A stretch of DNA of 64,000 nt from Candidatus Omnitrophota bacterium (GTDB lineage Bacteria > Omnitrophota > Gorgyraeia > Gygaellales > Profunditerraquicolaceae): NCBI GenBank assembly GCA_026387335.1, contig JAPLLX010000002.1, forward strand, positions 77,326-141,325, read 5' to 3'. Position 1 is the first letter of the stretch; every line of letters begins with the position of its first letter. Both the position numbers and the translations under genes were made by a program. Below, in pieces: positions 26,686 to 61,884 of the stretch. The notes beneath the pieces were generated by a model. It did no database searches and was not told the DNA's origin. It saw only the letters and a list, made by a program, of their open reading frames with translations.

Positions 26686-26698
26686 AACGGAGGCAGCG

Positions 26699-27442: not shown

Positions 27443-27455
27443 GGAGATATTCAAT

Positions 27456-27614: not shown

Positions 27615-27642
27615 CCGGGCAAGCTTAGTTTTAGGTACTTAA

Positions 27643-28347: not shown

Positions 28348-28377
28348 AAAAATAACAGGCAGGGAAGGAGAAACGAT

Positions 28378-29571: not shown

Positions 29572-29574
29572 GCA

Positions 29575-30039: not shown

Positions 30040-30075
30040 TCTGTTCTTTAGGCAGACAGGAGGTAAAAGGAAAAT

Positions 30076-30312: not shown

Positions 30313-30322
30313 GTTTTAAGCT

Positions 30323-31231: not shown

Positions 31232-31253
31232 AAGTTAATAAAGAAATAAATAC

Positions 31254-31296
31254 TTGACAAAATCCGCGTATCTTGTATACTCTACTATTATAATAG
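31254..31296 (+). promoter_or_regulatory. Sigma70-like promoter plus a perfect 12-bp palindrome upstream of the CymR-like Rrf2 gene
   Basis: TTGACA (31254-31259), 16 nt, TATACT (31276-31281). CTATTATAATAG (31285-31296) lies immediately downstream of the -10. Confidence 0.5.
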
Positions 31297-31312
31297 AGAT
31301 TATCTAGAATAA

Positions 31313-31753
31313 ATGAAAATCACCTATAAGGGCGATTACGCCTTAAAGACAATTTTGGATTTAGCCGCTCATTTCGGGAACGGACCGGTGGTCATCAACG
31401 ATTTATCCCGGCGCCTGGATATCCCCACAAAGTTCCTAGAGCAGATACTTTTGGATTTAAAGCGGGCGCACTTTGTGGAGAGTAAGCGCGGTAAGATCGG
31501 AGGCTATTCTTTGGCCAGGCATCCAGGGCAAATTACCCTGGGAGAGGTGACCCGTTTTATTGACGGCCCGATTGAGCCGATTGCCTGCGTAGATAAAAGA
31601 TATTCCGGCTGTCATGACGCGGGAGCCTGTGTTTTTAGAAGCATTTGGGGCCAGGTAAGCAGCTCAACCGCCAAGATCATAGATAATATAACCTTTGAAG
31701 ACCTTTTGAAAAGGTCAAAGAGGACAAATAAGTCTTTCAATTACCAAATTTAA
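31313..31753 (+). CDS. Rrf2-family regulator (CymR/IscR-like)
   Basis: Rrf2 N-terminal wHTH; it precedes cysK, as cymR does. Confidence 0.8.
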   Translation: MKITYKGDYALKTILDLAAHFGNGPVVINDLSRRLDIPTKFLEQILLDLKRAHFVESKRGKIGGYSLARHPGQITLGEVTRFIDGPIEPIACVDKRYSGCHDAGACVFRSIWGQVSSSTAKIIDNITFEDLLKRSKRTNKSFNYQI

Positions 31754-42800: not shown

Positions 42801-45800
42801 GCGAAGAGATCCCCCAAGGGTCTGATCCCAGCTTGCTGCCTGATGATTATCAAGGAAGTAAGCGTAGGATCACGATGGCTGTTTTGGATGGCTGGGGTAT
42901 AAACCCTGATCAGAATTATCCCTGGGATGCTATCCGGCTGGCCAATACACCTAATTATGACTGGATGGTTGAGAATGCGTCTTTCACTCAGGTCCAAGCG
43001 CACGGTGAAGTGATCGGATTAAGAGGCCCATTATCTTTGGAAGAAGGTAGACACCATTTAAGAGGCCTGCAAGCAGGCCAGACTGACGTTGGCCACCTGC
43101 ATTTGTTCTCACTGAGAGAGATTAAACAACCTTTATGGTATGTAGACAGGCTTATCAAAGGCAGTATACGCGATGGCGTTTTTGATGAAAGCAAACCCGA
43201 AGTCCAGGTATTGGTAAAAGAATTACAAAGGGTTAAGGATAATAATTTGAGATTTCATTATATAACCATCGCTTCTGAGGGTGGAGTGCATTCTTCGCTC
43301 TATCATATGTATGCCTTGATGAGATTAGCTAAGAAAATCGGCTTAAGGCAGGATCAATTTATTATCCATTTTGCCGCTGACGGTAGGGATGTGCCTACGC
43401 GCACCGCGCATCTATACATTCAGGATGTTGAAAAACGCATTGAAGAAATTGGAATAGGCGTAATTGCAACGGTATTTGGCAGGGATATGTTCGTACGTAA
43501 GGATGGCGCAGAAAATATCACTAATCGCATCATTGATGTAATGGAGGGTATTAATCTGGATGCGCAGGATGTCACGCAGGTAAAATCTGTCGCCAGCTCG
43601 GCGGTCACAGCAGTAGAATCTTTGAGAAATGATATTCTAACTAGGCTAAAAGAACGGATAAAAGATGATTCTGTTGTTAACCTGGTAAGGTCAAACTACT
43701 TATTTTATACGGCGAATACTCCTTCTAAATTAGCAAAGGCACTTGTTCAGATAGAAGAGAATCTGGATGGATTGATTATGTCTGCCACCGAAGAAAGATC
43801 GAGAGACCTGCAGACGCTCCAAGAATCAATAGAATCAGAACTGGCTAAACTTGTCTCCGTCGACTTGCCGGTGGAGACTATCAGTGAATTTGCAAAGATA
43901 GTTGAAAAACTGGCTGGTTATGGAGATGTAAGTTTTGATATATCGGGAACGGGAACTTTGAGAATACGCTATGCTGGTAATTTGTCTATGGTAGATAAGG
44001 TAGAAGCCGACAAGCTTCTGGTTAAGGCTAGAAAATTAATAGTAGAAGTTTCTTCTATAATAGGAAAAAAGATAAGCCAGTCATATGTGATGAAATTCCC
44101 GCAGGGGACTTTAGCTGCTAAGATAAGGGAAGATTTACTGCTTGAAAAAGCAAGGATATCAGAAAGTTTCGCCAGCTCGGAGGTTACTTATATAGACATA
44201 AATGAAGTAAGGCCGCCGGATAAGAGTTTTACTTTTCAACCCACAAATGGAGTGAGAATTTTTATTAATAATCGTGTCAATTGGTATACTCTGCAATTGG
44301 CTAGGTATGAGCCGGGAAAGAAGAATTATTTGATATTTAAGATTGGCAATCAACCTGTTCATTACGCTTACCTGAGCAGTAATCTTACAATTGGCCAACA
44401 GGATGTTGTTAGGACTATAATGAGAAAAATAGAGAATGGAACTCAGCTGTGGACAGAAATAGACTTAATCCAAGCGTTGGAAAAAGCATTATCTATGTCA
44501 CAATATAAGCCTAAAACTCAAGAATTACCGTCACCAATTATAATAGAACCTATTGTAGATAATAAAATTAAAGTGGAGTCGGGTGATTCAGAGCGCGCCA
44601 GCTCGCCGGTGCAGAAGGAAGAAAGATCGAACTATCTATTCTCTGGGTTACAGGAGGCAACCTTAGATGCAATTGGGGATATCCAGGGATTGGCAAGTTG
44701 GGCGCCTTTAATAGAAGAAGGCCCCAGCGGCGTAGAGCTAGGTATGGATATTATAATGAAGGAATACGGTTTAGATTCAGATAAGCCTATTCTTACGCAA
44801 CGATTAGCCGAACCAGGTAATTTTAAAGAGCTTTTGGAAAAAATCGATAAATTATATGAGTTTTTGGAAAAAAAATTAGAGAGCTTTTCTAAATTACTCG
44901 CTGATGTTAAAGAACAACAAAAGAAAATAATGACCCAGCATATAAGTAGTGTTAGCGACCAGGGTAAGGGTATAGAAAAAAGTTCCGTTTATTGGGGGAG
45001 TGAGTTTGTTTTAGAAGTTGCAATTAATAACATTGAAATAGCAATGCTTAAGTTAAGGCAAGCTGTTGAGAAAGTCAAAGGAGATATAGCTATTGTACCC
45101 AACTCATATATCGGGACTAAATTAAAGGAAGGCGCCAGCTCGGCGGTAACCAGAGAGAAAAAAGAGTCAGTTAACCTTTTAGGCGGAAGCACGCAAAAAA
45201 GAGTGCTTAGGGTTTATGAAGAGAAGGGCAGAGATTTAATAGCTACAGCCCTAGCTACAGGCCTTACTTTGGATATTGTATCTGAGTATGTTAAGGACGC
45301 CAAGCGTAATCCGGCCAGCTCGGCGGTGACGGAAAAAATTAAGGAAACGTTTCGCCAAGGAGGACTTTCCTTGAGTGAGTATACTATGGATTATATCGCG
45401 AAAAGGTTAAGCTCCATATTAAAGGATGGCGATGATATTGATAGAGATACTGCTGCTAAAATATTAATTAGCGTATATGATAATAATAAGCTTGCGGGTG
45501 GAACTCGAGCCCTCGGTCAAGTGTTTGCAACGCTTAATGATGCCAGGGAATTGCGGGAAATGGTAAAATACATCCGCGATCAGAAGGATAAATCTGTTGC
45601 CAGCTCGGCGGTGCATCATAAAATAATCAACCTCTACGATTTTGATTCTATCAAGGCGAAGAAAATAGATCCAAGTATTTTAAAAAATAGATTCATAGAG
45701 AAAATAGAAGAATTAATAGCAGATGTAAGGGAAGGTAAGAGAAGAGAATTTGCCGGTGAGTTGATACGATTAGCGAAAGCTGATGAGAACCTTTATACGA

Positions 45801-46357
45801 TTTGGTTTACCGATACAACATGGGTAGATATTAGACCTCAAGGGACAGAGATAGATATTAATTTTAGGTGTCGAGCTGGAATAGAGCAAAGCGTTGTGTG
45901 GGATGTTAGGCGTTTGATTAAGCTTTCCCAGTCAGAATTGTTAGTAGGAACCGTCGGCTCGGCGGTGCAGACTCCTGAGGAGACCGCAAGTTCAGCGTTG
46001 ACTCCCGGCGGTATTGATTTCCGCGCTCTACCGATGAGCATCCAGCCGATGGGAAGTTTTGCGGGCCTGAATTTTAAGCTGCCGCAGTTGACTCAAGCGC
46101 AGCTTAAGCAAATCAATATTGAATCAGAGATGCAACAGGTTAAGAATCTGGTAGAATCAGGGATTGTTCCTTCCGGAGACAGGATTAAAGAGCTTATCGC
46201 CGCTTGCAGCCAGAAGGGGAAGATTAGTTATTATGTAGATAATCTATTACTCTGCCTGGTAGATATATGTAAACTTGAAGAGCAGAATGCCTTTGAAACT
46301 TCCCCGGAGCTAAGAGAGGCGCTGGCGATTGTTGATTCGCTTGGCGGGCAGGTATAA
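39866..46357 (+). CDS. Giant secreted modular protein (2163 aa) with embedded iPGM-like metalloenzyme segments and at least 10 recurring A-S-S-A-V motifs; function unknown
   Basis: RBS AAAAGGAG; signal peptide MKVKLRKILSLALTISLLFQQIGFAQ. Hallmark iPGM motifs are internal: ITADHGASE ... HTANPVP (aa ~918-940), MAVLDGWG (aa ~1004), AGQTDVGH, SEGGVHSS (aa ~1135), DGRDV, IATVFGR. See findings. Confidence 0.85.
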   Translation: MKVKLRKILSLALTISLLFQQIGFAQIATELNLVNHFARMASSLTVEKFRPLHLRYFSYDNLNDNFKVLVDKGDFEKGLSPKGAVPEEKLKEETKTLLSYFLVGVTLPDSMFWVNLRPDSEDQIIDQYLEKTDIGKIMLEADLQLKKDTALMTSPATPEGREYWDRLYKKAAELYGYDNVSIPTLTRPWIVPGEIIVRESQDSAYVYKANLKVMLEQDYLKDSSNYNFKDSRSKALNEYSSELIRELIIPKLTKEVNSSKRYAPLRQVYYSLILARWFKLRFSGKTGTYASLINTRNLTNLISKDSWSKTDYFKQYQKSFSEGEYNIQEPVRTPTGQVIRSYFSGGIDVASSAINTQNGVSNLKAALPLSLFSRTGVIIGGNAARPFSVNLQPVVAASVGAASPVKTSSPIFTLDDRNGVVFSVYPRTEIREDQLREAAEVLKNRIFNYPKNGKIIDIQLVPGSKRQIAYPTRWKIVIEHKPDLEETLVTLVNDQGKVIINIGYSIDSKALDLPEKLLNEHLQMALISAASRIRFNSLAAASPVSSLENQAYLLALTLGIKDSERKYVAVVFMMPLIKAFMDNSNPPPTSSQAKEFYQRIINNTDKTVSVEVLARSFAFLSNPNASLSEKEKFNSSPVTSNLAKAVEEAQSQLPADVNEQILKFIVTGDENGRILYPIWPQDSVMVGHVRDDRAGYFARGLQNRGFKNLLGYIKFTNDFQGKAVLSEETIASVPNTFFERISNKGYQVLVISEDEKKSHTGKNAAGRKKDGLFPGQKQIVIPMQKSEMAYVDTPQMKMKECADEVLNGLDDDATDFILVNLLSSDMMKHTGNFQAAKKSNEITDQQIGRIKEKVDRIKSHILGDMMKEVNKYLSREEASQLYVLLLNNYAEFLARLKNKNQELYKRIKDLEAKIPIFVITADHGASEAGLTDNPKESDTFHTANPVPYIIYDPLRTQKLALKSGQTIRNNGATLLHLLGEEIPQGSDPSLLPDDYQGSKRRITMAVLDGWGINPDQNYPWDAIRLANTPNYDWMVENASFTQVQAHGEVIGLRGPLSLEEGRHHLRGLQAGQTDVGHLHLFSLREIKQPLWYVDRLIKGSIRDGVFDESKPEVQVLVKELQRVKDNNLRFHYITIASEGGVHSSLYHMYALMRLAKKIGLRQDQFIIHFAADGRDVPTRTAHLYIQDVEKRIEEIGIGVIATVFGRDMFVRKDGAENITNRIIDVMEGINLDAQDVTQVKSVASSAVTAVESLRNDILTRLKERIKDDSVVNLVRSNYLFYTANTPSKLAKALVQIEENLDGLIMSATEERSRDLQTLQESIESELAKLVSVDLPVETISEFAKIVEKLAGYGDVSFDISGTGTLRIRYAGNLSMVDKVEADKLLVKARKLIVEVSSIIGKKISQSYVMKFPQGTLAAKIREDLLLEKARISESFASSEVTYIDINEVRPPDKSFTFQPTNGVRIFINNRVNWYTLQLARYEPGKKNYLIFKIGNQPVHYAYLSSNLTIGQQDVVRTIMRKIENGTQLWTEIDLIQALEKALSMSQYKPKTQELPSPIIIEPIVDNKIKVESGDSERASSPVQKEERSNYLFSGLQEATLDAIGDIQGLASWAPLIEEGPSGVELGMDIIMKEYGLDSDKPILTQRLAEPGNFKELLEKIDKLYEFLEKKLESFSKLLADVKEQQKKIMTQHISSVSDQGKGIEKSSVYWGSEFVLEVAINNIEIAMLKLRQAVEKVKGDIAIVPNSYIGTKLKEGASSAVTREKKESVNLLGGSTQKRVLRVYEEKGRDLIATALATGLTLDIVSEYVKDAKRNPASSAVTEKIKETFRQGGLSLSEYTMDYIAKRLSSILKDGDDIDRDTAAKILISVYDNNKLAGGTRALGQVFATLNDARELREMVKYIRDQKDKSVASSAVHHKIINLYDFDSIKAKKIDPSILKNRFIEKIEELIADVREGKRREFAGELIRLAKADENLYTIWFTDTTWVDIRPQGTEIDINFRCRAGIEQSVVWDVRRLIKLSQSELLVGTVGSAVQTPEETASSALTPGGIDFRALPMSIQPMGSFAGLNFKLPQLTQAQLKQINIESEMQQVKNLVESGIVPSGDRIKELIAACSQKGKISYYVDNLLLCLVDICKLEEQNAFETSPELREALAIVDSLGGQV
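41066..45967 (+). repeat. Dispersed direct repeats of a GC-rich 12-15-nt element inside the giant ORF
   Basis: GCCGCCTCGCCGGTT at 41066-41080 and 41483-41497. AGCTCGCCGGTG at 41769-41780. GCCAGCTCGG(C/A)GGT at 43592-43605, 44171-44184, 45134-45147, 45314-45328 and 45599-45613. GCCAGCTCGCCGGTG at 44597-44611. GGCTCGGCGGTG at 45956-45967. All are in the same frame and encode A(A/S)S(A/P/E)V. Confidence 0.8.
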
Positions 46358-51647: not shown

Positions 51648-52745
51648 ATGGAAACCTATTTCTTAAAAAATGATGACCTGCTAAAATTTTATGAACGTAT
51701 AGCTCAGGAATATGAGTTGTATGTTCCGGTTAGGTCTAGGCTAGCGTATAAGGATGAGTGCGGATGCAAGCCGGGGTTTCCTACCGATGATTATTTCTTA
51801 AGGAAATTTTCGCAAGTAAATAAAGAGGATATAGTCTTTAGCGATTACCGCTGCGTAGAGCCTACCCGCGCGTTCTTCACCCATTATAAAGAAGAAGTCA
51901 GCGCGTATTTTGAAGACGCGCCCTTAAAAGAGAAGAGGGAGCGGCCTTTGGCCCTCTGCGGGATAAAGAATTGCGATATATTTTCCTTAAAAATACAGGA
52001 TTTTGTATTCCTGGAAGGAGATGAAACAGACCAGCTTTATAAGACCAGGAGGGATGGCGCTTTAATAATTTCTAGCGATTGCCCGCATTTTAAAGAAGTT
52101 TGTTTCTGCAGGGCGTTTGATATCAATCCCTATCCGCTCGAAGGTTTTGATTTTAACCTGGCGCCGCTGAATAACGGTTACCTTCTGGATGTAGCGTCGC
52201 CAAGAGCTAAAAGCATAGCTCTATCCTTAAAAAGTATATTAATTCCGGCGACATTGGGCCAGCTCTCGGGAAGAGCAGCCAAGAGAGAGTCGCTGGATCT
52301 GCGCCTGGATGAGCATCTCAAGCAATATAATATCCCCAAGAAAGAAACCCTGCAGGATACGGTATTATCTGGGTATAATTCCGGGATCTGGAATGATGAA
52401 GCGCGCACGTGCGTTGAATGCAATGGCTGCGTATTTATGTGCGATACCTGCCATTGTTTTCTGCTGGCGGATGAACCTTCAGCGCAGAATTCTAAACGGC
52501 TGCGCCTTTGGGACGGCTGCCTCTTTAAGAATTTTACCCGGGTGGCCGGAGGGGCCAACCCTTTACGCCTGCGTTATATGCGGCTGCGCAACCGTTTTTT
52601 AAAAAAATTTGATTTTTTTATTTCTAATCTAGGGATGCAAGCCTGTTGTGGCTGCGGAAGATGCATTGATGTCTGCCCGGGGAAAATTGATATACGCCGG
52701 ATATTGCGTAAACTATATGAAGAAAAACATCTACCAACCAGTTAA
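51648..52745 (+). CDS. Fe-S subunit, AsrA / HydB (sulfhydrogenase-beta)-like
   Basis: Multiple Cys clusters, including CVECNGCVFMCDTCHC and CCGCGRCIDVCPG. Confidence 0.55.
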   Translation: METYFLKNDDLLKFYERIAQEYELYVPVRSRLAYKDECGCKPGFPTDDYFLRKFSQVNKEDIVFSDYRCVEPTRAFFTHYKEEVSAYFEDAPLKEKRERPLALCGIKNCDIFSLKIQDFVFLEGDETDQLYKTRRDGALIISSDCPHFKEVCFCRAFDINPYPLEGFDFNLAPLNNGYLLDVASPRAKSIALSLKSILIPATLGQLSGRAAKRESLDLRLDEHLKQYNIPKKETLQDTVLSGYNSGIWNDEARTCVECNGCVFMCDTCHCFLLADEPSAQNSKRLRLWDGCLFKNFTRVAGGANPLRLRYMRLRNRFLKKFDFFISNLGMQACCGCGRCIDVCPGKIDIRRILRKLYEEKHLPTS

Positions 52746-53535
52746 GGCTGTTATTGAGGAAATAATCGAGGAATCCTCAACGATAAAGACTTTCCGGCTT
52801 AAGCCCGAAGGGGATTTTAGTTTTTCTACCGGCCAGTTCATTGAATTGACTGTGCCCGGAGTGGGAGAAGCGCCATTTACCCCTTCTTCTGATCCGGGGG
52901 TCAAGGGAAGTTTAGACCTTACTATAATGAATGCGGGTGAAGTCACCTCTAAATTACATTCTCTGCGTAAAGGAGATGCAGTGGGCCTGCGCGGGCCTTA
53001 CGGCAAGGGTTATCCTTTGGATACGTTTAAGGGAAAGGATATTTTGATCGTCGGCGGCGGAGTGGGTCTAGCGCCGTTACGCTCGTTATTATTCAGTCTT
53101 TTCTCCAAGATCAATAATTACAATAAAGTCGTCTTGCGTTACGGCGCCCGCTCGCCAAAAGACATAGTTTATAAGACCTCTCTTCCTGATTGGGCCAAGA
53201 TGGAGCGAGTGGATGTTTTAGTCAGTGTAGATATAGGGGAACCTGCTTGGCAGGGGAACGTGGGTCTGGTGACTACGATATTAGGGAACGCTCCGATAGA
53301 TTTCACGAATGCCGTCGGAATAGTCTGTGGCCCTCCGATCATGATGAAATTTGTCACTTTGAAATTACTGGACATAGGTTTTAAGCCGCCGGATATATAT
53401 TTATCTATGGAAAAGAGTATGTCCTGCGGGCTGGGTAAATGCGGGCATTGCCGTTTAGGCAAATATTATGCCTGTAAAGACGGCCCGGTATTTACTTACG
53501 AACAGTTAAAAGATATCCAGGGTATTTGGGATTAA
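52717..53535 (+). CDS. PyrK/AsrB/HydG-like FAD/NAD(P)-binding subunit with C-terminal [2Fe-2S]
   Basis: Start placed at ATG 52717 (MKKNIYQPVKAV...). FNR-like fold; C-terminal CGLGKCGHCRLGKYYACKDGPVF. Confidence 0.6.
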   Translation: MKKNIYQPVKAVIEEIIEESSTIKTFRLKPEGDFSFSTGQFIELTVPGVGEAPFTPSSDPGVKGSLDLTIMNAGEVTSKLHSLRKGDAVGLRGPYGKGYPLDTFKGKDILIVGGGVGLAPLRSLLFSLFSKINNYNKVVLRYGARSPKDIVYKTSLPDWAKMERVDVLVSVDIGEPAWQGNVGLVTTILGNAPIDFTNAVGIVCGPPIMMKFVTLKLLDIGFKPPDIYLSMEKSMSCGLGKCGHCRLGKYYACKDGPVFTYEQLKDIQGIWD

Positions 53536-53539
53536 TGCG

Positions 53540-54034
53540 ATGAAAAGGTTATTTCTAGATTTAGATATTTGCGATAAGTGTAAAGAATGCAAGGTTACCT
53601 GTGATTATTTCTATCATCCGCAGAACGACGGTATTACGTCTTTACGCGAATACGCGACTTTCGCGACTATCTGCCGGCATTGTGAAGAAGCGCCCTGCGT
53701 GGATTCCTGTTATCATAACGCCCTGGAGAGGGCGCCTGACGGGCATATTAAGCGTTATAAGATGCGCTGCACAAGCTGTAAATCCTGTTCCATTGCCTGT
53801 CCTTTCGGAATTATTTTCCAGGATTTTATTCCCTATCTGGATTCTAAATGCGATTATTGCGTAGGTAAAAGCGCCGAACTTCCTAAATGCGCGTTTACCT
53901 GCCCCGAAAAAGCTATAGAGGTCAAAGAAGTCGAAGAGAGCTTAGAGCGGGATATTTATTTTGTGGGAGAACATTTAGCGGTGCATTCGCGTAAATGGTC
54001 AAGGGAGGATATACAACCCCCGAGAAAGAAATGA
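53540..54034 (+). CDS. Poly-ferredoxin-like 4Fe-4S cluster protein
   Basis: 16 Cys in CxxCxxC(xxx)C-type arrays. Confidence 0.6.
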   Translation: MKRLFLDLDICDKCKECKVTCDYFYHPQNDGITSLREYATFATICRHCEEAPCVDSCYHNALERAPDGHIKRYKMRCTSCKSCSIACPFGIIFQDFIPYLDSKCDYCVGKSAELPKCAFTCPEKAIEVKEVEESLERDIYFVGEHLAVHSRKWSREDIQPPRKK

Positions 54035-54942
54035 AAGAAATTTTTTATTATTTAATATTTCCCGGTTTTTTATTCAGCGCGCTAGTAGGGCTAATGGCCG
54101 GTTGGATAGATAGAAAGTTGACGGCGCGCCTGCAATGGCGGGTCGGACCGCCCTGGCATCAGAATTTTACCGATATCGTAAAATTATTAGGTAAAGAGGT
54201 TATTGTCCCCGAAGGCGCCAGGCTTACGTTTTTATTTTCACCGTATCTGGGCTTGGTAAGCGCGATATTGGTAGCCGCCAGCTTAGGAAGGATCATAATT
54301 TCTCCGGCAAATAGTTTCGGCGCGGACTTGATCGTCTTTTTCTATCTTTTAAGCTTACCGGCCGTAGCCTTGATCATCGGGGCTTCTTCTTCCAGAAATC
54401 CGTTGGCTTCGGTAGGGGTATCCAGGGAGGTTAAACTTCTTTTAGCTTATGAGCTGCCGCTTATCCTCTCTATAATTACTGTGGTCATCAAAAGCAACGG
54501 GTCCCTCCAGATAGGCTCGATAATCCAGCAGCAGATGTTCTTTGGCTCCAATATTTTTTCATTTTCAGGCGCTTTGGCTTTTCTGGTCGCAATATTTTGT
54601 ATGCAGGCAAAATTAGGGTTAGGGCTTTTTGATGTTGCTGAAGCGGATCAGGAGCTTATGTGCGGGACCTTAATTGAATATTCGGGGCTGCCGTTGGCAA
54701 TATTTAAACTAACCAAGGCCTTAATGCTTTATACTGTCCCGCTTTTTATCATTGTTTTATTTTTAGGTTGCTCTTTAAGCCCGGCGTTACTGATCGCTAA
54801 ATATTTGATGCTGTTGGCTATAATGATATTGATCAAGAACACTAACCCGCGTTTACGCATAGACCAGGTTTTAAGATTCTTCTGGAGAATACCGACGCTG
54901 GCAGCCGGGGCAGCCGTTATTCTGGCTATGTTGGGATTATAA
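54031..54942 (+). CDS. Group-4 hydrogenase membrane subunit (NuoH / EchB / HycD-like)
   Basis: Start at ATG 54031, overlapping the upstream stop; NuoH motif (RLQWRVGPP). Confidence 0.7.
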   Translation: MKEIFYYLIFPGFLFSALVGLMAGWIDRKLTARLQWRVGPPWHQNFTDIVKLLGKEVIVPEGARLTFLFSPYLGLVSAILVAASLGRIIISPANSFGADLIVFFYLLSLPAVALIIGASSSRNPLASVGVSREVKLLLAYELPLILSIITVVIKSNGSLQIGSIIQQQMFFGSNIFSFSGALAFLVAIFCMQAKLGLGLFDVAEADQELMCGTLIEYSGLPLAIFKLTKALMLYTVPLFIIVLFLGCSLSPALLIAKYLMLLAIMILIKNTNPRLRIDQVLRFFWRIPTLAAGAAVILAMLGL

Positions 54943-54943
54943 T

Positions 54944-55369
54944 ATGGATATAAGACGTAAGGCTTGGACTAAATCTATCTGGGTATTTCATGTGAGCAAT
55001 GGCTCTTGCAATAATTGCGATATTGAAATCCTGGATTGTTTTACCCCCAGATTCGACCTTGAACGTTTTGGCATACAGCTTATCGGATCAGTCCGGCACG
55101 CCGACGCGCTTTTAATCACCGGGGCAATGAATAAAAAATCAATTCCCAGGATGAAAAAAATCTATGAACAAGCGGCTAAGCCCTGTGTGGTGGTAGCCTG
55201 CGGCACCTGCGCGTGTTCACAGCATATGTTCAGGGATAGCTATAATGTGGGGGAGCCTTTGGATAAAATATTACCGGTAGATGTCTATATTCCGGGTTGC
55301 CCTCCCAAGCCGGAGGCAATCATTGCCGGCATCGTAAAACTGGTAGATAAAGTAAGGAAGGGTAAATAA
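54944..55369 (+). CDS. [NiFe]-hydrogenase small subunit (NuoB / EchC-like)
   Basis: CNNCDIE, ACGTCACSQ and IPGCPPKPE cluster ligands. Confidence 0.8.
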   Translation: MDIRRKAWTKSIWVFHVSNGSCNNCDIEILDCFTPRFDLERFGIQLIGSVRHADALLITGAMNKKSIPRMKKIYEQAAKPCVVVACGTCACSQHMFRDSYNVGEPLDKILPVDVYIPGCPPKPEAIIAGIVKLVDKVRKGK

Positions 55370-55373
55370 GCTT

Positions 55374-55802
55374 ATGGATATGCGCGACAGAATAAAAGAG
55401 AAATTACAGGATAAAATAAAAGATTGGCAGGAGAAGTCTATTAAGAGGATATACTTCGCAATAGACAAGAAAGATATTTTTAAGGTTACGCAGGTATTAT
55501 TTAAAGAGCTGGAACTAAGGTTTATCACTGCTTCCGCCACAGATATGCCGGATTATTTTGAGATTTTGTATCATTTCAGCAATGACCCTTCGGGCGAGAT
55601 CTATTCAGTCCGTGTTTTATTAGAAGATAAGCTTAAACCCGAAATCCAGTCAATAACCCCGATGTTTGCCGGCGCTGAATGGGTTGAGCGGGAGATCTGG
55701 GAGATGCTGGGGATTAATTTTAAGGGGCATCCGAATTTAAAAAAGCTTCTGCTGGCCGAAGAATGGCCGGAAGGTGAATATCCTTTGAGGAATAAAAAAT
55801 GA
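55374..55802 (+). CDS. NuoC / EchD-like subunit
   Basis: Position and size between the small and large subunits; NuoC-like pattern. Confidence 0.55.
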   Translation: MDMRDRIKEKLQDKIKDWQEKSIKRIYFAIDKKDIFKVTQVLFKELELRFITASATDMPDYFEILYHFSNDPSGEIYSVRVLLEDKLKPEIQSITPMFAGAEWVEREIWEMLGINFKGHPNLKKLLLAEEWPEGEYPLRNKK

Positions 55803-57007
55803 GCCATAAAATCATCGTGCCCATAGGGCCATATCACCCTTTACAGGAAGAGCCGGAATATTTCCAACTTTATGTTGAAGGCGAGCGGGTAGTTGATATA
55901 GATATAATTATCGGTTATAACCACCGCGGAATAGAAAAACTATCCGAGTCTAAACATTTTGACCAGGTGCCGTTCTTAGTCGAGCGTATTTGCGGCATTT
56001 GTTCGTCAAGCCATCCTTATGCTTATGTTTTAGCCGTAGAAAATATTTTAGGAGGAGAAGCAACTATTGTTCCGGAGAGAGCACTCTATATCCGCACAAT
56101 CATTGATGAACTCCAGAGGATCCACAGCCATCTCTTATGGTTGGGCCTGGCCGGACATTTTATCGGATATAATACTATCTGGATGTGGGCGTGGAAATAC
56201 CGCGAGCCGGTCCTGGATTGTTTTGAAATGGTTACCGGAAACCGGAATAACTACGCTATGTTCAAAGTCGGCGGAGTCAGGCGGGATATAAAAGACGAAG
56301 ATATTCCGGTCTTAAAAAAGATGCTGGACGAATTAAGCCCGGCGGTAGATTTATTCCGCGGCGCGATTATGGATGACCCGGTCATTAAAATGCGGCTTAA
56401 GGGCGTAGGGGTGTTGACCCGCCAACAGGTGATTGATTGGTGCGTTGTGGGCCCCACTGCCCGGGCCTCAGGAGTGAATATTGATATTCGCCGGGATGAT
56501 CCTTACGGAGTAATTGAGAGGCTGGATTGGAACGTAATTTTAGAAAAAGAGGGAGATATTTTTTGTAAAACCGTAGTCAGGATCCTGGAATTATATGAGA
56601 GTATAAGTATAATCCGGCAGTCCTTAAATAAGATCCCCAAGGGCGCTCCCATTGACGCCGAAGTCAAAGATATCCCTGCCGGAGAAGGCATCGGTAGAGT
56701 GGAAGCTCCCCGGGGTGAATGTTTCCATTATATAAAAAGCGACGGGACCAACCGGCCGATCAGGCATAAGATCCGCTCTCCGAGTTTTATGAATGTGGCT
56801 TCGGATAAAGTTTCGGCGGTAGGAGGGACGATTTCCGATGCTACGCTGACTCTAGCGGCGGTTGACCCCTGTTATTGTTGCACGGAGAGAGTGGCGGTTA
56901 TCCGCAAAACAGATAATCACAAAGTGATGAATGGCTGGGATTTGATTAAGTTGTCTCAAGAAAAGACCCTTAGACTAAAGGAGGTTTATTATGGTAGACC
57001 TGAATAG
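55799..57007 (+). CDS. Group-4 [NiFe]-hydrogenase large subunit (NuoD / EchE-like)
   Basis: N-terminal RICGICSSSH and C-terminal DPCYCCTER Ni-Fe binding motifs. Confidence 0.85.
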   Translation: MSHKIIVPIGPYHPLQEEPEYFQLYVEGERVVDIDIIIGYNHRGIEKLSESKHFDQVPFLVERICGICSSSHPYAYVLAVENILGGEATIVPERALYIRTIIDELQRIHSHLLWLGLAGHFIGYNTIWMWAWKYREPVLDCFEMVTGNRNNYAMFKVGGVRRDIKDEDIPVLKKMLDELSPAVDLFRGAIMDDPVIKMRLKGVGVLTRQQVIDWCVVGPTARASGVNIDIRRDDPYGVIERLDWNVILEKEGDIFCKTVVRILELYESISIIRQSLNKIPKGAPIDAEVKDIPAGEGIGRVEAPRGECFHYIKSDGTNRPIRHKIRSPSFMNVASDKVSAVGGTISDATLTLAAVDPCYCCTERVAVIRKTDNHKVMNGWDLIKLSQEKTLRLKEVYYGRPE

Positions 57008-57608
57008 TATTAAGGTAAAGATTAATCAAATGTCCAAAAGCGCTTCATCTATGTGGCAGCTTACTTATGACGCTTTCATTGAGCACGACGTGGACCTGAT
57101 CACCAAGGCCCTGCTTGAGGAAGATAAACTCAATGCTTTGGAAGAGGAAATCAATAAAGAAATAATCGGCTTAGCTCGTTCGTCAGTCACGCCGGAAGAA
57201 AAATCCAGAGTTATAACTTATGCCAATATTGCCGGGGATTTTGAGTTAATCGGAGACTACTGTAAGGATATTCTGGAGAGGATCCAGATAAAGATAGAAG
57301 AAAAGCTGCTTTTTAGCGAAGGAGCGGTGGAAGAATATAAGAACCTTTACAATAAAACCAAAGGCGCTTTGGATGAAGTTGTTTTTGTTTTGGAGAAAGA
57401 TAACCCCGCCCTGATTAAAGAAGTATTAAGAAAAGAGGAGCATATTGACAGCCTCGTGGATAAATACCGCCATAACCACGACCAGCGAATGCTTGTCGGC
57501 GAATGCACGCCTATGGGCTGTAATATGTTTTTGAACATGCTGGATTTTACAGCCGCGGTTTATTACCATATTAAAAAGATAGCTAAAAGCCTCTTAGAGA
57601 TAAAATGA
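56991..57608 (+). CDS. Hypothetical helical protein (PhoU-like?) inserted in the hydrogenase operon
   Basis: 205 aa, coiled/helical with no redox motifs; RBS AAGGAGG. Confidence 0.3.
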   Translation: MVDLNSIKVKINQMSKSASSMWQLTYDAFIEHDVDLITKALLEEDKLNALEEEINKEIIGLARSSVTPEEKSRVITYANIAGDFELIGDYCKDILERIQIKIEEKLLFSEGAVEEYKNLYNKTKGALDEVVFVLEKDNPALIKEVLRKEEHIDSLVDKYRHNHDQRMLVGECTPMGCNMFLNMLDFTAAVYYHIKKIAKSLLEIK

Positions 57609-59338
57609 TGAATACCAGTTTATTCTTTTTACTTGCGCTTCCCCTGGCCGTTTGTTTAATTTTATTCTTTTTAGGCAAACAGGATAATCTGAGGAAGAAC
57701 TTAAGCTTAGCCGTATTCCTGTTAAGCCTGGTATTTTCCGTTTATTTATTTTTAAAGCCGCCCGGAGCCTGGAGCAGGTATTTATTTAACGGCTACGTTC
57801 TTACGCTCGGGCTGGATAAGCTCTCCCGCCTGATATTAATCTTCGCCAATCTTTTCGGGGTATTGGTCTGCTTATATTCTAAAGATTATATGAACGCTAA
57901 GCGCGGGTATTTCTCCTGGCTCCTGGGATTGCTGGTCTTTACTAATTTAGAAATACTGGCCACGGACTTTATTATATTCGTATTATCCTGGGGCGGTTCC
58001 ATCTTTATGCTCTACGCCTTACTTAACCTGGGTTCAAGTTTTAGCGCTAAAAAGGCCACGACAATATTAGGGTTTTCTTATATCTGTTTTATTATCGGCG
58101 CCTGTATCTATTCCAGGTTTAGCGGTTCATTCAGCATGTCAGGCGGGACGAGCATGGTTCTCAACCGGCCTGTATGCTGGCTAGCTTTTGGCTTGATGCT
58201 CACCGGCGCCCTGGCCAAGATGGGTTCGGGCCCATTTCATACCTGGATACCTACTGCCAGCGAAAATGCCCCTATTCCGGTTATGGCCATATTGCCGGCA
58301 TCTTTGGACAAACTGCTGGGCGTATACATACTCTCGCGCCTTTGCCTGGACTTCTTTGTGATGAATAGTTTTGTAATCGCGCTCTTGCTGATTACCGGGA
58401 GCCTCACTATAATTTTTGCGGTTTTGATGGCGCTTATCCAGCATGACTTAAGGAAGCTGCTGGCGTATCACGCGATAAGCCAGGCAGGATATATGGTCCT
58501 GGGTTTAGGCACCGGAAATCCCGTAGGGGTTATAGGCGCGATATTCCATATGTTTAACAACGCGATATACAAAAACGGGCTTTTCCTGGTGGGTGGCGCG
58601 GTAGAAAAAGAGAAGGGAACTTTTGACCTGGATAAATTAGGGGGCCTGGCCCGCTATATGCCGCTTACTTTTGCGAGCGCGCTGATTTTAGCTCTCTCCA
58701 TTTCAGGAGTCCCTCCTTTTAATGGTTTTGTTTCTAAGTTGATGATTTATCAGGGCACACTTTTAGGGCTTATGTCATCTTCAGGGATCTGGTTGCGTTT
58801 TGCTTTTATGTTTGCTTTAATTTCGGCGATGTTTGGCAGCGCCCTTACTTTGGCCAGTTTTATAAAATTTATCCACGCTATCTTTTTAGGCCAGGATAAT
58901 AACCTTAAGAAGAATAAAATAAGCGAGGCTCCCTGGAAGATGCTTACTCCGCTATTGGTCTTATCCGGGCTTTGCGTAGTCCTTGGGATATTCTCCAGCG
59001 CCTTTATCAGAGGAGAACTGGCTGCGTCTTTCTCATTCGCCCTAAATTATAGCGGAAAAATAAACAGTATGTTTGTCGCCTTGTTCTTAGGCGTAGCCTT
59101 ACTGGCGGGATTCCTTTTATGGAAAGTAATTTCTTCAGGCAAAGGGGTAAGGGAAGATAGCTTTTTTGTAGGAGGGGAGTCGGCCTACGGTTCGCCCAAT
59201 TTCCCGGCTACGGAATTTTATAAGACAATAGAGGACGTTCCTTTATTGTCTAAGGTTTATAAGTTTCTTAAATCCGGGAAATGGGATATCTATAACCTGT
59301 TAAACAAAATTTTGAAAATATGCGCCGTCCAAAAATAA
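57605..59338 (+). CDS. Antiporter-like membrane subunit (NuoL / EchA / MbhH-like)
   Basis: About 16 TM helices and a conserved AYHAISQAGYMVLGLG region. Confidence 0.75.
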   Translation: MMNTSLFFLLALPLAVCLILFFLGKQDNLRKNLSLAVFLLSLVFSVYLFLKPPGAWSRYLFNGYVLTLGLDKLSRLILIFANLFGVLVCLYSKDYMNAKRGYFSWLLGLLVFTNLEILATDFIIFVLSWGGSIFMLYALLNLGSSFSAKKATTILGFSYICFIIGACIYSRFSGSFSMSGGTSMVLNRPVCWLAFGLMLTGALAKMGSGPFHTWIPTASENAPIPVMAILPASLDKLLGVYILSRLCLDFFVMNSFVIALLLITGSLTIIFAVLMALIQHDLRKLLAYHAISQAGYMVLGLGTGNPVGVIGAIFHMFNNAIYKNGLFLVGGAVEKEKGTFDLDKLGGLARYMPLTFASALILALSISGVPPFNGFVSKLMIYQGTLLGLMSSSGIWLRFAFMFALISAMFGSALTLASFIKFIHAIFLGQDNNLKKNKISEAPWKMLTPLLVLSGLCVVLGIFSSAFIRGELAASFSFALNYSGKINSMFVALFLGVALLAGFLLWKVISSGKGVREDSFFVGGESAYGSPNFPATEFYKTIEDVPLLSKVYKFLKSGKWDIYNLLNKILKICAVQK

Positions 59339-59934
59339 GAGAATTAAAAGAGGTTATAAAGTCTTTATTCGGTCGCGCTTACACCAGCGATTTCCCGCGT
59401 AAGCCGCATACGCCTTACGAGAGGTTTCGCGGCAGGCCATATTTCCATGAGGAAGATTGCCTGGGTTGCACTGCCTGCGCTCAGGTCTGCCCGGCGAAAG
59501 CGATAGAGGTAAGCGATCAGGTGGCCGCAGGGGCAATAAAAAGAAAATTAACTGTTCATTGGGATATCTGCATATTTTGCGGGCAATGCGAGGCCAGTTG
59601 CCCTACCTTAAAAGGTATAATGCTCTCGCGGGAATTTGACCTGGCTACAACCGAGAAGAGGCAGGATTTAAAGCAGGTAATTGAAAAAGAGTTCGTAATC
59701 TGCGAATATTGCGGCGAGCCGATCCTGCCTTACGACCAGTATGTTTGGGTCGCTAAACGCTTAGGCGCGCTTACTTTTACCAACGCTTCGCTTCTGCTTT
59801 TTTATTTAAGAAGCGCCGGGCTGGCTTTAAAAGAAAGGTTTCTTGCCGGCAATAAACAGGCCGCTCTCAACCGTTCTACGCGCCTGAAAATCCTTTGTCC
59901 CCGCTGCCGGCGCGAGGCAGTAATCAAATCTTAA
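59320..59934 (+). CDS. 2x[4Fe-4S] subunit (NuoI / EchF-like)
   Basis: CLGCTACAQVCP and CIFCGQCEASCP. Confidence 0.75.
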   Translation: MRRPKIRELKEVIKSLFGRAYTSDFPRKPHTPYERFRGRPYFHEEDCLGCTACAQVCPAKAIEVSDQVAAGAIKRKLTVHWDICIFCGQCEASCPTLKGIMLSREFDLATTEKRQDLKQVIEKEFVICEYCGEPILPYDQYVWVAKRLGALTFTNASLLLFYLRSAGLALKERFLAGNKQAALNRSTRLKILCPRCRREAVIKS

Positions 59935-59994
59935 TTTATGCCCCTGCTGTTCCGAATGTCCGATAAAATGAAACAGCAGGGGTAAATTCGCGCA

Positions 59995-61239
59995 TTGACT
60001 TACTCTCTGCCTTCGGCGGATCGTAAGTCAAGCGCTCATTTAATGTTTTCTTCATTACAGGTAAGAAATTACCGGGTCTATTGGCTTGGTATGTTTGTTT
60101 CGCTTATCGGCACCTGGATCCAGCAGGTAGCCCAGAGTTGGCTGGTCTTTGAGCTGACTAATTCGGCTTTTCTCCTTGGCGTGGTGGGATTTTTAAGCTC
60201 TATCCCCATATTCCTTTTATCATTATTCGGAGGCGTTTTAGCTGACCGCCTGAATAAAAGGAATATCCTCATATTAACCCAAACAATTTTTATGGTCCTG
60301 GCGTTTATATTGGCGGTCCTTACTCAAAATAAATTAATTACTCCTGCGCAGATTATGATTATCGCTTTGCTTAACGGGATAGTTATGGCTTTTGACGCGC
60401 CGGCCCGGCAGGCAGTAGTGGTAGAACTCGTCGGAAAAACCCATTTATTTAACGCGATAGCTTTAAATTCCGTGGCTTTTAATTCTTCGCGGATAATCGG
60501 CCCGGCTCTAGCCGGTATATTAGTCGCGACAATAGGCATGAGCGGTTGTTTCTATATAAACGGGATAAGTTTTTTGGCGGTACTGATTGCTCTTTGGACA
60601 ATTAGTATCAAGAGAGGGATTAATGACGTTAAATCCAAAGGAGCGTTCCACGATTTAAAAGAAGGCCTGATATTTATTAAGAATAATCGCCTGATTTTGG
60701 CTTTGATTTCTAATGTAGCGGTAATCAGCCTATTTGGCGTGGCCCATATTATACTTATGCCCATATTTGCCAATGATATTTTAAAGGTGGGGATTAAAGG
60801 CCTGGGGGTTTTATTGTCTGCTTCAGGGATGGGCGCGTTAATCGGGGCGCTGATTTTAGCTAAACTCGGAGATTCTAAGCGCAAGGGGAGGCTCCTTTGC
60901 GCTTCAACGATATTGTTTTCTTTCGCTCTTATAATTTTCTCTTTATCAAAAATATACTGGTTATCGCTTGTGGCTATGTTTTTGGTAGGAGGGACAAGTG
61001 TTACGGCAGTCGCCCTGATAAATACGTTATTACAGATGAGGGTTGAGGATAAATTCAGAGGCAGGGTAATGAGCGTATTTATGATTACTTTTGCCGGTTT
61101 GATGCCTTTTGGCAATCTTATCGCCGGGAGTATTGCCCAGGTAATGGGTGTTTCTTTCGCGGTTATGTTAGGTGGTAGCATTTGCGCGGCGTTTTTTCTG
61201 ACCGTTAATGTTGTCTACCCGAAAATAAGAGAAATCTAA
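59995..61239 (+). CDS. MFS transporter (EntS-like efflux type)
   Basis: Twelve TM helices and MFS motifs. Confidence 0.7.
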   Translation: MTYSLPSADRKSSAHLMFSSLQVRNYRVYWLGMFVSLIGTWIQQVAQSWLVFELTNSAFLLGVVGFLSSIPIFLLSLFGGVLADRLNKRNILILTQTIFMVLAFILAVLTQNKLITPAQIMIIALLNGIVMAFDAPARQAVVVELVGKTHLFNAIALNSVAFNSSRIIGPALAGILVATIGMSGCFYINGISFLAVLIALWTISIKRGINDVKSKGAFHDLKEGLIFIKNNRLILALISNVAVISLFGVAHIILMPIFANDILKVGIKGLGVLLSASGMGALIGALILAKLGDSKRKGRLLCASTILFSFALIIFSLSKIYWLSLVAMFLVGGTSVTAVALINTLLQMRVEDKFRGRVMSVFMITFAGLMPFGNLIAGSIAQVMGVSFAVMLGGSICAAFFLTVNVVYPKIREI

Positions 61240-61350
61240 GTAATTTTGATTGATTTTTCTAAAAGATTTGTTAAAATTATAGAAACCAGTAACACCCCGG
61301 GCTTATAAGGTATTGCGCGGGTGTGCCCTTCTGGTCAAGGAGGTGAGCAG

Positions 61351-61827
61351 ATGAAAAGATTCGGATTTATTGTTTTGGCTTCCGTAATTGCAATTTCAAT
61401 TTTCGGATGCGGTAAAAAGCAGCAAACGTTAGAAGAGATGCAGCAACCAATGTCTATGGAGACGCTTTCCACAATGTCTACTACAACCGCGCCTACTCTA
61501 GAGACAAAGGTAGAGAGCAAGGCCCCTGAAGCTAAGATTGAAGTAGGAACTCCTTCAGTAGTCAAAGCGGCAAAATTAGAACCCTTACCTCCGGCCGGTC
61601 CTTTTAAACCTACGGCTATCGAGATCCAGGCAGCGCTTAAGAACGCGGGTTTCTATACCGGAACAGTAGACGGCAAAATCGGAGCAAAAACCAAGAAGGC
61701 TATCTCAGAATTCCAGAAGGCAAATGGCCTGACAGGAGATGGCAAAGTAGGTCCTAAGACTTGGAGCGTATTAAGTAAATATCTTAATTCCCAGTCAGCG
61801 TCACCAACATCTTCCGGCGCCAGATAA
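61351..61827 (+). CDS. Lipoprotein with C-terminal peptidoglycan-binding (PG_binding_1) domain
   Basis: Start at ATG 61351 with a perfect RBS AAGGAGGTGA. Lipobox IFGCGK. Tandem GxVDGxxGxxTxxAIxxFQ repeats. Confidence 0.65.
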   Translation: MKRFGFIVLASVIAISIFGCGKKQQTLEEMQQPMSMETLSTMSTTTAPTLETKVESKAPEAKIEVGTPSVVKAAKLEPLPPAGPFKPTAIEIQAALKNAGFYTGTVDGKIGAKTKKAISEFQKANGLTGDGKVGPKTWSVLSKYLNSQSASPTSSGAR

Positions 61828-61853
61828 GCTGAGCCAGTTTTAGTTTTAAGAAA

Positions 61854-61884
61854 AGTCCCGGCATTTTTGCTGGGACTTTTTTTA
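61854..61884 (+). terminator. Rho-independent terminator
   Basis: AGTCCCGGC ... GCTGGGACT stem (one mismatch), then TTTTTTTA. Confidence 0.6.

Follow-up and report, generated by a model that had tools for sequence, protein, structure and literature searches.

A ten-gene cluster in the genome of a Candidatus Omnitrophota bacterium raises the question of which redox partner serves the membrane-bound [NiFe] hydrogenase that it encodes, and how this enzyme came by so small a membrane arm. The cluster occupies positions 51648-59934 of the stretch of DNA that we analyzed (hereafter the window): 64,000 nucleotides (nt) of contig JAPLLX010000002.1, positions 77,326 to 141,325 of the forward strand, from assembly GCA_026387335.1. 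The membrane-bound hydrogenases of Omnitrophota and Cloacimonadota have been published as HydDB group 4g, linked to an Mrp module, and modeled as ferredoxin-dependent H2 producers (PMC10066038, PMC8542988). HydDB itself lists the role of group 4g as undetermined, with putative coupling to ferredoxin (PMC5037454), and in a published survey of metagenome-assembled genomes (MAGs) from Ace Lake a group 4g enzyme is reported as the only hydrogenase in each genome. We think it probable that the operon described here encodes an NAD(P)H-linked membrane [NiFe] hydrogenase from which the Mrp module has been secondarily lost.

The enzyme of the window is almost certainly the same as the published Omnitrophota group 4g enzyme, a label that we carry over by identity. 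Its large subunit has thousands of homologues and is 82-93% identical to very many Omnitrophota proteins; the best 120 homologues are 82-91% identical, and the named ones among them come mostly from Omnitrophota (Omnitrophica). A scan of species-representative genomes returned 57 related loci, most of them from Omnitrophota and the others from WOR-3, Bipolaricaulota, Mcinerneyibacterium, a Dehalococcoidales bin, bins labeled Planctomycetia, and two distant Atribacterota (44% identity). Locus layouts were determined by tblastn with the window's proteins and with extra proteins of the relatives. The exact large subunit of the window is not in the contig collection, and locus context is that of its close homologues.

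Hydrogenase signatures of the catalytic core

Pfam and NCBIfam profile searches assigned families to all ten proteins, and showed that the large and small subunits are encoded together with NuoC-, NuoI-, NuoH- and antiporter-like partners. The large subunit carries the motifs RICGICSSSH (residues 63-72) and DPCYCCTER (residues 356-364). Its four Ni-Fe ligand cysteines align with those of MbhL and HycE, and they are invariant in 58/58 related large subunits. Beyond the cleavage-site arginine, full-length relatives have a C-terminal extension of 33-43 residues with a conserved LIKLSQEKT motif (38 aa in the window; 32 residues, with a variant of the motif, in the two Atribacterota proteins), as would be typical of large subunits that are processed by a protease. 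Among solved structures the best relative is MbhL (6cfw_L, 4.1e-84), followed by HycE (2.5e-73). Scores against the group 3 large-subunit families were poor (HydA 3.8e-4, ShyA 1.9e-12) compared with that for the NuoD family (3e-97). Among solved proteins the small subunit is closest to MbhJ (6cfw_J, 4.1e-47), and its Cys 22, 25, 89 and 119 (in SCNNC, at C89 and in GCPPKPE) align with the MbhJ cluster ligands.

A first-pass annotation of this DNA, made from the letters alone, had called the enzyme a hydrogenase rather than a complex I relative. The motifs that it quoted for both subunits are genuine, and the presence of all Ni-Fe ligands, together with the protease-type extension, agrees with its call. 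We assign the predicted enzyme to the group 4 hydrogenases and not to the complex I paralogues. The same annotation had found no maturation genes in the window, which is borne out for open reading frames (ORFs) of at least 120 aa: none of these is a hyp or hycI gene, HypA- and HypC-sized ORFs falling outside the scan. A gene for a HycI-type maturation endopeptidase lies ~10 kb downstream of the cluster in one Mrp-bearing relative (L001:20872-21203).

A candidate NAD(P)H module upstream of the core

Three genes precede the NuoH-like gene of the core. The first encodes a HydB/AsrA-like protein (Pfam Fer4_22, 1.3e-26; NCBIfam ShyB 5.8e-44, HydB 1.9e-36, AsrA 5.9e-27) whose best solved relative is the beta subunit of Pyrococcus furiosus sulfhydrogenase I (9nez_B, 1.1e-28). 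The second encodes a HydG/AsrB-like protein with the Pfam domains FAD_binding_6, NAD_binding_1 and DHODB_Fe-S_bind (NCBIfam AsrB 2.2e-67, HydG 3.7e-57), an NAD(P)-binding GGGVGLAP motif and a [2Fe-2S] motif, CGLGKCGHC...C. Its best solved relative is the gamma subunit of the same sulfhydrogenase (9nez_C, 3.2e-56), with which its GxGxxP motif and [2Fe-2S] cysteines align. The third gene encodes a ferredoxin (Pfam Fer4_11, 1.3e-11) with 16 cysteines in four CxxCxxCxxxC-type motifs, most similar among solved proteins to HycB of Escherichia coli formate hydrogenlyase (FHL; 7z0s_B, 1.9e-12). We propose that this HycB-like ferredoxin connects the flavoprotein module with the hydrogenase. The last Fe-S subunit of the cluster also resembles its FHL counterpart, matching the NCBIfam formate hydrogenlyase iron-sulfur subunit (8.7e-29) better than NuoI (7.2e-22), and HycF, its best full-length solved relative (7z0s_F, 4.5e-20), better than MbhN (1.5e-13); an extra C-terminal CxxC...CxxC pair is part of the HycF match.

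The trio is closely tied to the hydrogenase core. Of the 40 loci whose sequence extends at least 2.6 kb beyond the NuoH-like gene on its upstream side, 39 have the AsrA-like, AsrB-like and ferredoxin genes immediately before it, in the order AsrA-AsrB-Fdx-M-J-K-L. These loci represent six phyla: Omnitrophota, WOR-3, Bipolaricaulota, Mcinerneyibacterium, Dehalococcoidales and the bins labeled Planctomycetia. The sole exception is an Atribacterota locus with the canonical Mbh gene order. The trio is retained even where the genes further upstream differ (L004 and L005 versus L001 and L002), and only 4 nt separate the AsrB-like and ferredoxin genes of the window. With this gap, the lack of a terminator, and its adjacency to the core in the relatives, the AsrA/AsrB-like pair belongs to the hydrogenase cluster, as first supposed.

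Neither a siroheme AsrC-type gene nor any other gene for handling sulfur was found, whether in the cluster, elsewhere in the window or in the related loci with annotation. A separate sulfite-reductase operon was rejected on the absence of AsrC, on the 4-nt gap and on the conservation of the pair beside the core. Electron bifurcation by the flavoprotein pair is unsupported, because only one flavin-binding subunit is evident. The direct NAD(P)H coupling that had been suggested at first pass appears well founded, since the pair is conserved with the cluster and its best solved relatives are subunits of the NADPH-dependent sulfhydrogenase I.

A related arrangement has been described in Saganbacteria, where asrA-, asrB- and cooF-like genes and a molybdopterin gene lie beside an "enigmatic" Mrp-type group 4 hydrogenase; the hydrogenase was closest to those of Zixibacteria and Omnitrophica, and the authors proposed that the genes encode an oxidoreductase module (PMC6349859). 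In the literature that we found, the point about a nucleotide module is neither made nor tested for Omnitrophota, and nothing directly relevant was found on HydB/HydG with Mbh or on sulfhydrogenase I cryo-electron microscopy. The family is common and is named in surveys; its conserved nucleotide module and its PhoU partner are essentially undescribed.

Absence of the Mrp module in one clade

In the Mrp-bearing relatives, seven genes lie between the antiporter-like gene or genes and the HycF-like gene: MbhD/E-like, MnhB, NuoK-like, a second MrpD-like antiporter subunit, MnhE, MrpF and MrpG. This module is present in 30 complete loci and missing from the window and from eight other loci (L006-L012 and L060), which derive from seven MAGs and from several studies and samples. 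A tblastn search with all seven proteins found no Mrp homologue anywhere in the window, and within 51648-59934 there is no further membrane subunit besides the NuoH-like and antiporter-like proteins. Recurrence of the same layout in the eight other loci led us to reject an assembly artefact as the source of the missing genes.

To place the reduced loci we built a neighbor-joining tree from 58 large subunits, with Atribacterota as the root. Those of the reduced loci, which are 86-93% identical to that of the window, formed one monophyletic tip clade nested among those of Mrp-bearing Omnitrophota loci. This nesting indicates that the loss of Mrp in the window's lineage is secondary. We infer an ancestor with the seven-gene Mrp module and two or three antiporter-like subunits, reduced by one or two deletions.

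The antiporter-like subunit is altered in the same clade. Its best solved relatives are MrpA (6z16_A) and MbhH (6cfw_H), and it shares 50-53% identity with the 630-aa antiporter encoded in loci where PhoU is followed by two antiporter genes in tandem (PhoU, 464-aa antiporter, 630-aa antiporter, Mrp). Orthology with the 560-aa subunit of the sister locus L015 was rejected, as the subunit is closer to the 630-aa protein. Every orthologue in Mrp-bearing loci continues into one or two terminal transmembrane (TM) helices (LHxGVLxxYLxW...), whereas the subunit of the window ends ~60-70 residues past its last hydrophobic segment, its stop codon lying 19 nt inside the next gene. This C-terminal anchor helix is missing in the reduced clade only; it would have gone with the deletions, and would have anchored the subunit to the partners that were lost. 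The TM7 and TM12 lysines (K205 and K323) are kept in the window. Both are also kept in all Mrp-bearing loci examined; antiporter genes in which one or both are replaced lie at L011:11807-13537 and L012:3602-5299.

The reduced operon is under purifying selection and is not decaying. Nei-Gojobori estimates of the ratio of nonsynonymous to synonymous substitution rates (dN/dS) within the reduced clade were 0.03-0.14 for all ten genes, with values of 0.09-0.12 for the antiporter-like gene, and they include a pair of loci (L006/L007) whose synonymous divergence of 0.2-0.3 is unsaturated. Pseudogenization was rejected on these ratios.

The first-pass annotation had presented the cluster as a rearranged Ech hydrogenase. 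That framing does not hold: because the nearest relatives all bear Mrp, the window's clade is nested among them, and the antiporter-like subunit has lost its anchor helix, the Ech-like core of six subunits is best read as a secondary reduction of an Mbh/Mrp-type complex. It should rather be named an Mrp-less derivative of the Omnitrophota Mbh-type hydrogenase (published as 4g). Our literature searches turned up no description of this Mrp-less form.

Other variants of the layout were seen among the relatives. At L047:11199-19097 the HycF-like gene directly follows the large subunit and is itself followed by antiporter and Mrp genes, and at L055:11410-15895 (Dehalococcoidales) the Mrp module is down to its NuoK-like and MrpD-like genes; these layouts suggest independent partial reductions. 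In L011, which belongs to the reduced clade, a further, distant hydrogenase-like pair lies ~9 kb upstream of the cluster (L011:21-1181), its large subunit ~27% and its small subunit ~42% identical to those of the window.

A PhoU-fold protein within the cluster

Between the large subunit and the antiporter-like subunit lies a gene whose product was described at first pass as a helical protein of unknown role, inserted into the cluster. Its helical nature is confirmed in the form of a full PhoU fold, and the idea of an insertion without a role gives way to that of a conserved accessory. The Pfam PhoU profile matched the protein with E = 9.5e-21, and NCBIfam phoU_full scored 52 against a cut-off of 130. 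An AlphaFold model is a six-helix bundle (predicted local distance difference test 92, predicted template modeling score 0.90) that superposes on Pseudomonas aeruginosa PhoU (4q25) with a template modeling score of 0.89 and a root-mean-square deviation of 2.1 A over 202 columns; across P. aeruginosa and Aquifex PhoU the scores were 0.84-0.89 at 17% identity.

We detected 369 homologues of the protein. The best 120 of these are all ~200 residues long, and the named ones among them are from Omnitrophota and are annotated as "PhoU domain" or, wrongly, as "phosphate:Na+ symporter". The gene is found in 26/42 complete loci and absent in 16, and it takes two positions: the interval between the large subunit and the antiporter in 17 loci, and that between MrpG and the HycF-like gene in 9. 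Proteins from both positional classes align over their full length and conserve the motifs ERIxIKxxEKLLFS and YRxxHxxR...GxCxPxxxNMxxxMLDFT. In the reduced clade the gene has a dN/dS of 0.03-0.07. No pst or pho genes (pstSCAB/phoR) were found in the window.

Because of the fold, the motifs shared by both positional classes and the low dN/dS, we conclude that the PhoU-fold protein is no chance insertion but an accessory dedicated to this hydrogenase family. As a conjecture, it would most likely regulate or gate the membrane arm from the cytoplasm, an idea taken from the PhoU domains found on phosphate transporters; it may instead be a metal-binding factor. To our knowledge, PhoU-fold proteins have not previously been linked to hydrogenases, and no such link was found in the literature searched.

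Operon structure, start sites and neighboring genes

The ten ORFs are tightly packed on the + strand, with gaps of at most 7 nt or overlaps at all junctions, and a terminator scan found no intrinsic terminator within 51648-59934. The ten genes form one operon. Their coordinates, families and order (ferredoxin, H-, B-, C-, D-like, X, L-, I-like) are as the first-pass annotation gave them, with two starts refined. The flavoprotein ORF was listed from GTG 52648, and ATG 52717 is the better start because the called genes of relatives agree with it. The NuoH-like ORF opens at 53995, and its most likely start, ATG 54031, forms an ATGA overlap with the ferredoxin stop; relatives' genes are called at the matching length.

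Table 1. Features of the hydrogenase operon (positions are those of the window)
Feature	Position	Strand	Evidence
HydB/AsrA-like Fe-S subunit, 365 aa, 20 Cys, C-terminal Fer4_22 dicluster	51648..52745	+	Pfam, NCBIfam, 9nez_B
HydG/AsrB-like flavoprotein, 272 aa, FAD + NAD(P) + C-terminal [2Fe-2S]	52717..53535	+	Pfam, NCBIfam, 9nez_C
HycB/CooF-type ferredoxin, 164 aa, 16 Cys	53540..54034	+	Pfam Fer4_11, 7z0s_B
NuoH/MbhM/HycD-like membrane subunit, 303 aa	54031..54942	+	Pfam NADHdh 4.9e-59
[NiFe] small subunit, NuoB/MbhJ type, 141 aa, one [4Fe-4S]	54944..55369	+	Pfam Oxidored_q6 1.7e-29
NuoC/MbhK-like subunit, 142 aa	55374..55802	+	Pfam Complex1_30kDa 1e-26
[NiFe] large subunit, 402 aa	55799..57007	+	Pfam Complex1_49kDa + NiFeSe_Hases
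PhoU-fold accessory protein, 205 aa	56991..57608	+	Pfam PhoU 9.5e-21
Antiporter-like subunit (MrpA/MbhH/NuoL-type), 577 aa, C-terminally truncated relative to orthologues in Mrp-bearing loci	57605..59338	+	Pfam Proton_antipo_M 6.7e-45
HycF-type 2x[4Fe-4S] subunit (NuoI/MbhN position), 204 aa	59320..59934	+	NCBIfam, 7z0s_F
Hairpin with 13-bp stem directly 3' of the last gene, no U tract	59939..59983	+	RNA fold -21.9 kcal/mol, z = -3.8

The hairpin that follows the last gene may be a weak terminator, marking the operon end, or an RNA-stabilizing element. The sole strong intrinsic terminator nearby (61847-61884, a 17-bp stem with a T run) lies beyond two further genes, which encode an MFS_3-family transporter (59995-61239) and a protein with a peptidoglycan-binding domain (61321-61827). 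Most related loci have the same two genes after the cluster, including loci with a different upstream flank, and the two may be co-transcribed with the hydrogenase. A promoter scan was uninformative (37 sites, against 31.8 +/- 4.8 expected), and terminator-like sites were not enriched.

Elsewhere in the window, an oxygen-defense cluster (26052-31753) encodes an Rrf2 regulator, desulfoferrodoxin, an NAD-binding flavoprotein, a flavodiiron protein, a PNPOx-like protein, thioredoxin reductase and a second Rrf2; its NAD-binding flavoprotein (27643-28347) is 32% identical to the AsrB-like protein of the hydrogenase operon. A giant ORF of 2163 aa (39866-46357) contains metalloenzyme and iPGM-type (phosphoglycerate mutase-like) domains within otherwise unannotated sequence, and recalls the "big ORFs" that have been described in Omnitrophota. 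At 7585-9561, an apolipoprotein N-acyltransferase (LNT_N and CN_hydrolase) of 658 aa is fused to a C-terminal M23 peptidase domain, an unusual combination.

A model for the complex and its alternatives

In the model that we favor, which is drawn from sequence, all ten products would assemble into one complex. The HydG/AsrB-like flavoprotein and the multi-cluster HydB/AsrA-like protein would serve as an NAD(P)H input/output module. The four-cluster HycB-like ferredoxin and, after it, the two-cluster HycF-like subunit would form a wire in the style of formate hydrogenlyase, leading to an Mbh-type core of small, NuoC-like, large, NuoH-like and one antiporter-like subunit. Electrons would pass reversibly from NAD(P)H through FAD, the [2Fe-2S] cluster, the HydB-like, HycB-like and HycF-like proteins and the proximal [4Fe-4S] cluster to the Ni-Fe site.

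The formation of H2 from NAD(P)H is uphill by ~18 kJ/mol at standard conditions and near equilibrium at the H2 pressures found in the environment. The two membrane proteins, NuoH-like and antiporter-like, would trade this gap for ion translocation. Where H2 is scarce, it would be evolved from NAD(P)H, pulled by the ion gradient where necessary; where H2 is abundant, NAD(P)+ would be reduced with H2 while ions are exported. The enzyme is thus most likely a reversible redox valve, with perhaps a slight leaning toward H2 evolution over H2 uptake as its main physiological role. What the reduction left would be a two-subunit membrane arm like those of Ech and FHL, kept by selection, and the loss of Mrp predicts that this arm lacks Na+/H+ exchange and has a lower ion-to-electron ratio. 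A broader proposal, to which we give somewhat less than an even chance, concerns the whole family, which is common in Omnitrophota and occurs in five or more other candidate phyla: it would be a complex-I-like NAD(P)H:proton oxidoreductase that translocates ions, acquired its nicotinamide module independently of NuoEFG and has Ni-Fe in the place of quinone, with PhoU gating the arm and the window's clade as the minimal version.

Several points weigh against an NAD(P)H-linked, ion-coupled enzyme. Net H2 evolution from NAD(P)H requires a low H2 pressure or an input of energy, because the reaction is endergonic at standard conditions. The HydB/HydG-like proteins fall below the curated cut-offs of all named NCBIfam equivalogs; they appear to be a distinct subfamily, and their substrate could differ from those of the named proteins. 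In the antiporter-like subunit, the TM5 glutamate typical of such subunits is a glycine throughout the subunit family, and two loci of the reduced clade carry substitutions of the channel lysines (K323Q in L011; K205E and K323Q in L012), which may reflect relaxed constraint on ion translocation after the loss of Mrp. As these two loci have lost one or both lysines, ion pumping by the reduced arm is not assured. The large-subunit tree is a simple neighbor-joining tree without support values. We know of no biochemically characterized member of this hydrogenase family, and of no characterized group 4g hydrogenase. Finally, the Omnitrophota surveys assume reduced ferredoxin as the donor (PMC10066038, PMC8542988).

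The last point corresponds to a rival explanation, in which the enzyme is an ordinary ferredoxin-dependent, H2-evolving hydrogenase of the Mbh/Ech type. Free reduced ferredoxin would be the main donor, docking on the HycB/HycF-like subunits, and the HydB/HydG-like pair would be auxiliary, for example as a ferredoxin:NAD(P)+ oxidoreductase. This would fit the HydDB-based annotation of 4g as putatively ferredoxin-coupled, the closeness of the catalytic core to the ferredoxin-dependent Mbh of P. furiosus, and the established redox potentials, which favor ferredoxin as a donor for H2 evolution. We nevertheless consider it unlikely. P. furiosus Mbh is not known to have HycB-like or HydBG-like genes, and L057, the sampled Atribacterota locus of Mbh type with canonical order, has none; the trio, by contrast, stands before the core in 39/40 loci, with reading frames that overlap or nearly abut. 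It also outlasted a reduction that removed eight other genes and is still under purifying selection. Moreover, HycB in FHL is a dedicated connector to a bound dehydrogenase and not a dock for ferredoxin (7z0s).

Two further explanations seem far less probable. The HydB/HydG-like pair could be a reductase site for sulfur compounds (sulfite, polysulfide or S0), coupling H2 or the ion gradient to sulfur reduction, on the model of AsrAB feeding AsrC or of the sulfur-reducing side activity of sulfhydrogenase. The NCBIfam matches to AsrA and AsrB would fit, as would the name of the solved sulfhydrogenase relatives; but AsrC/siroheme and other sulfur-handling genes are missing from the places searched, the FAD- and NAD(P)-binding domains are intact, and sulfur reduction by sulfhydrogenase is generally held to be a non-physiological side activity. 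We regard this explanation as very improbable. Least probable of all is that the cluster lacks Mrp because it is decaying or was misassembled, and that it encodes no working ion-coupled enzyme. Seven or eight genes and the antiporter anchor helix are indeed missing compared with all other lineages, and the lysine replacements in two reduced-clade members could be read in the same way. Yet different studies and samples have yielded eight other loci, in seven MAGs, with this layout; all ten genes are intact, and the large subunit is 86-93% identical across the reduced clade. Every gene, the antiporter-like one included, has a dN/dS of 0.03-0.14, also at unsaturated divergence, and two-subunit membrane arms are known to function in FHL-1 (7z0s) and Ech.

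The NAD(P)H-linked reading, if correct, has consequences beyond this locus. If the trio is truly the point of electron entry or exit, metabolic models that include 4g hydrogenases are wrong about both the redox partner and the energetics. Nicotinamide coupling to a complex-I-type arm would have arisen a second time, independently, in an ion-coupled hydrogenase of this kind, which bears on the modular assembly of complex I. The window's clade would also show that an Mbh-type enzyme can shed its Mrp module to leave an Ech-like core, the reverse of the usual evolutionary narrative. The Mrp-less clade is a natural deletion experiment, with the same catalytic and input modules, one antiporter-like subunit in place of two or three, and no Na+/H+ exchanger; comparison with its Mrp-bearing sisters could reveal what Mrp contributes.

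Relationship to known systems

The P. furiosus membrane-bound hydrogenase (MBH; MbhA-N, PDB 6CFW) is a ferredoxin-coupled, Mrp-linked enzyme of HydDB group 4d. The large, small and antiporter-like subunits of the window match MbhL, MbhJ and MbhH best or near-best among solved structures, the Ni-Fe ligand pattern is the same, and the window's relatives have a full Mrp-like module. Unlike MBH, the window lacks the Mrp module, has a HycF-type rather than an MbhN-type last Fe-S subunit, and adds the HycB-like protein, the HydB/HydG-like module and the PhoU-fold protein. Its gene order is M-J-K-L-H...N, compared with ...H-I-J-K-L-M-N in MBH, the canonical order that is also seen in the Atribacterota locus L057.

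E. coli FHL-1 (HycBCDEFG with FdhH; PDB 7Z0S; group 4a) shares with the window a two-subunit membrane arm of one NuoH-like and one antiporter-like protein, a HycB-type four-cluster connector with a HycF-type subunit, and a C-terminal extension of the large subunit after DPCxxCxxR. The dehydrogenase part differs, being a molybdopterin formate dehydrogenase in FHL-1 and an NAD(P)-binding flavoprotein pair in the window; no match to a molybdopterin family was found in the cluster or the window's other ORFs. The window's large subunit is also nearer to MbhL than to HycE, and its NuoC-like protein is separate from the large subunit. Ech (EchABCDEF, group 4e) has the same six core types (antiporter-like, NuoH-like, small, NuoC-like, large and NuoI-like). 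The window departs from it in order, H-B-C-D-(PhoU)-L-I rather than echABCDEF, in its four extra genes, and in having reached this composition by apparent loss from an Mrp-linked ancestor, in a tree that holds no Ech reference sequence.

The published 4g Mbh enzymes of Omnitrophota and Cloacimonadota were described in papers that do not mention the HydB/HydG-like module or PhoU (PMC10066038, PMC8542988), and the locus of the Saganbacteria RX5A hydrogenase differs from the window in having a molybdopterin subunit (PMC6349859). P. furiosus sulfhydrogenase I (HydBGDA; PDB 9NEZ), an NADPH-dependent enzyme of group 3b, supplies the best solved matches to the upstream pair with its beta and gamma subunits, whose FAD, NAD(P) and [2Fe-2S] motifs align with those of the window's proteins. 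The same pair in group 3b sulfhydrogenases links NADP(H) to a soluble Ni-Fe dimer, whereas the partner in the window would be a membrane-bound group 4 core, reached through HycB/HycF-like proteins instead of the soluble alpha/delta dimer.

Complex I (NuoA-N) offers the broadest parallel, with a nicotinamide-oxidizing flavoprotein module, an Fe-S wire, and homologues of NuoB, C, D, H, I and L in an ion-translocating arm. The acceptor site in the window would be Ni-Fe, acting on protons or H2, where complex I reduces quinone; the input module is of the PyrK/HydG type, unrelated to NuoEFG (NuoF-type); and the window has no equivalents of NuoA, J, K, M or N. Because the nearest solved relatives are sulfhydrogenase I beta/gamma, HycB/HycF and MbhL/MbhJ, the enzyme is best described as the predicted combination of a group 3b-type nucleotide module, an FHL-type wire and an Mbh-type core.

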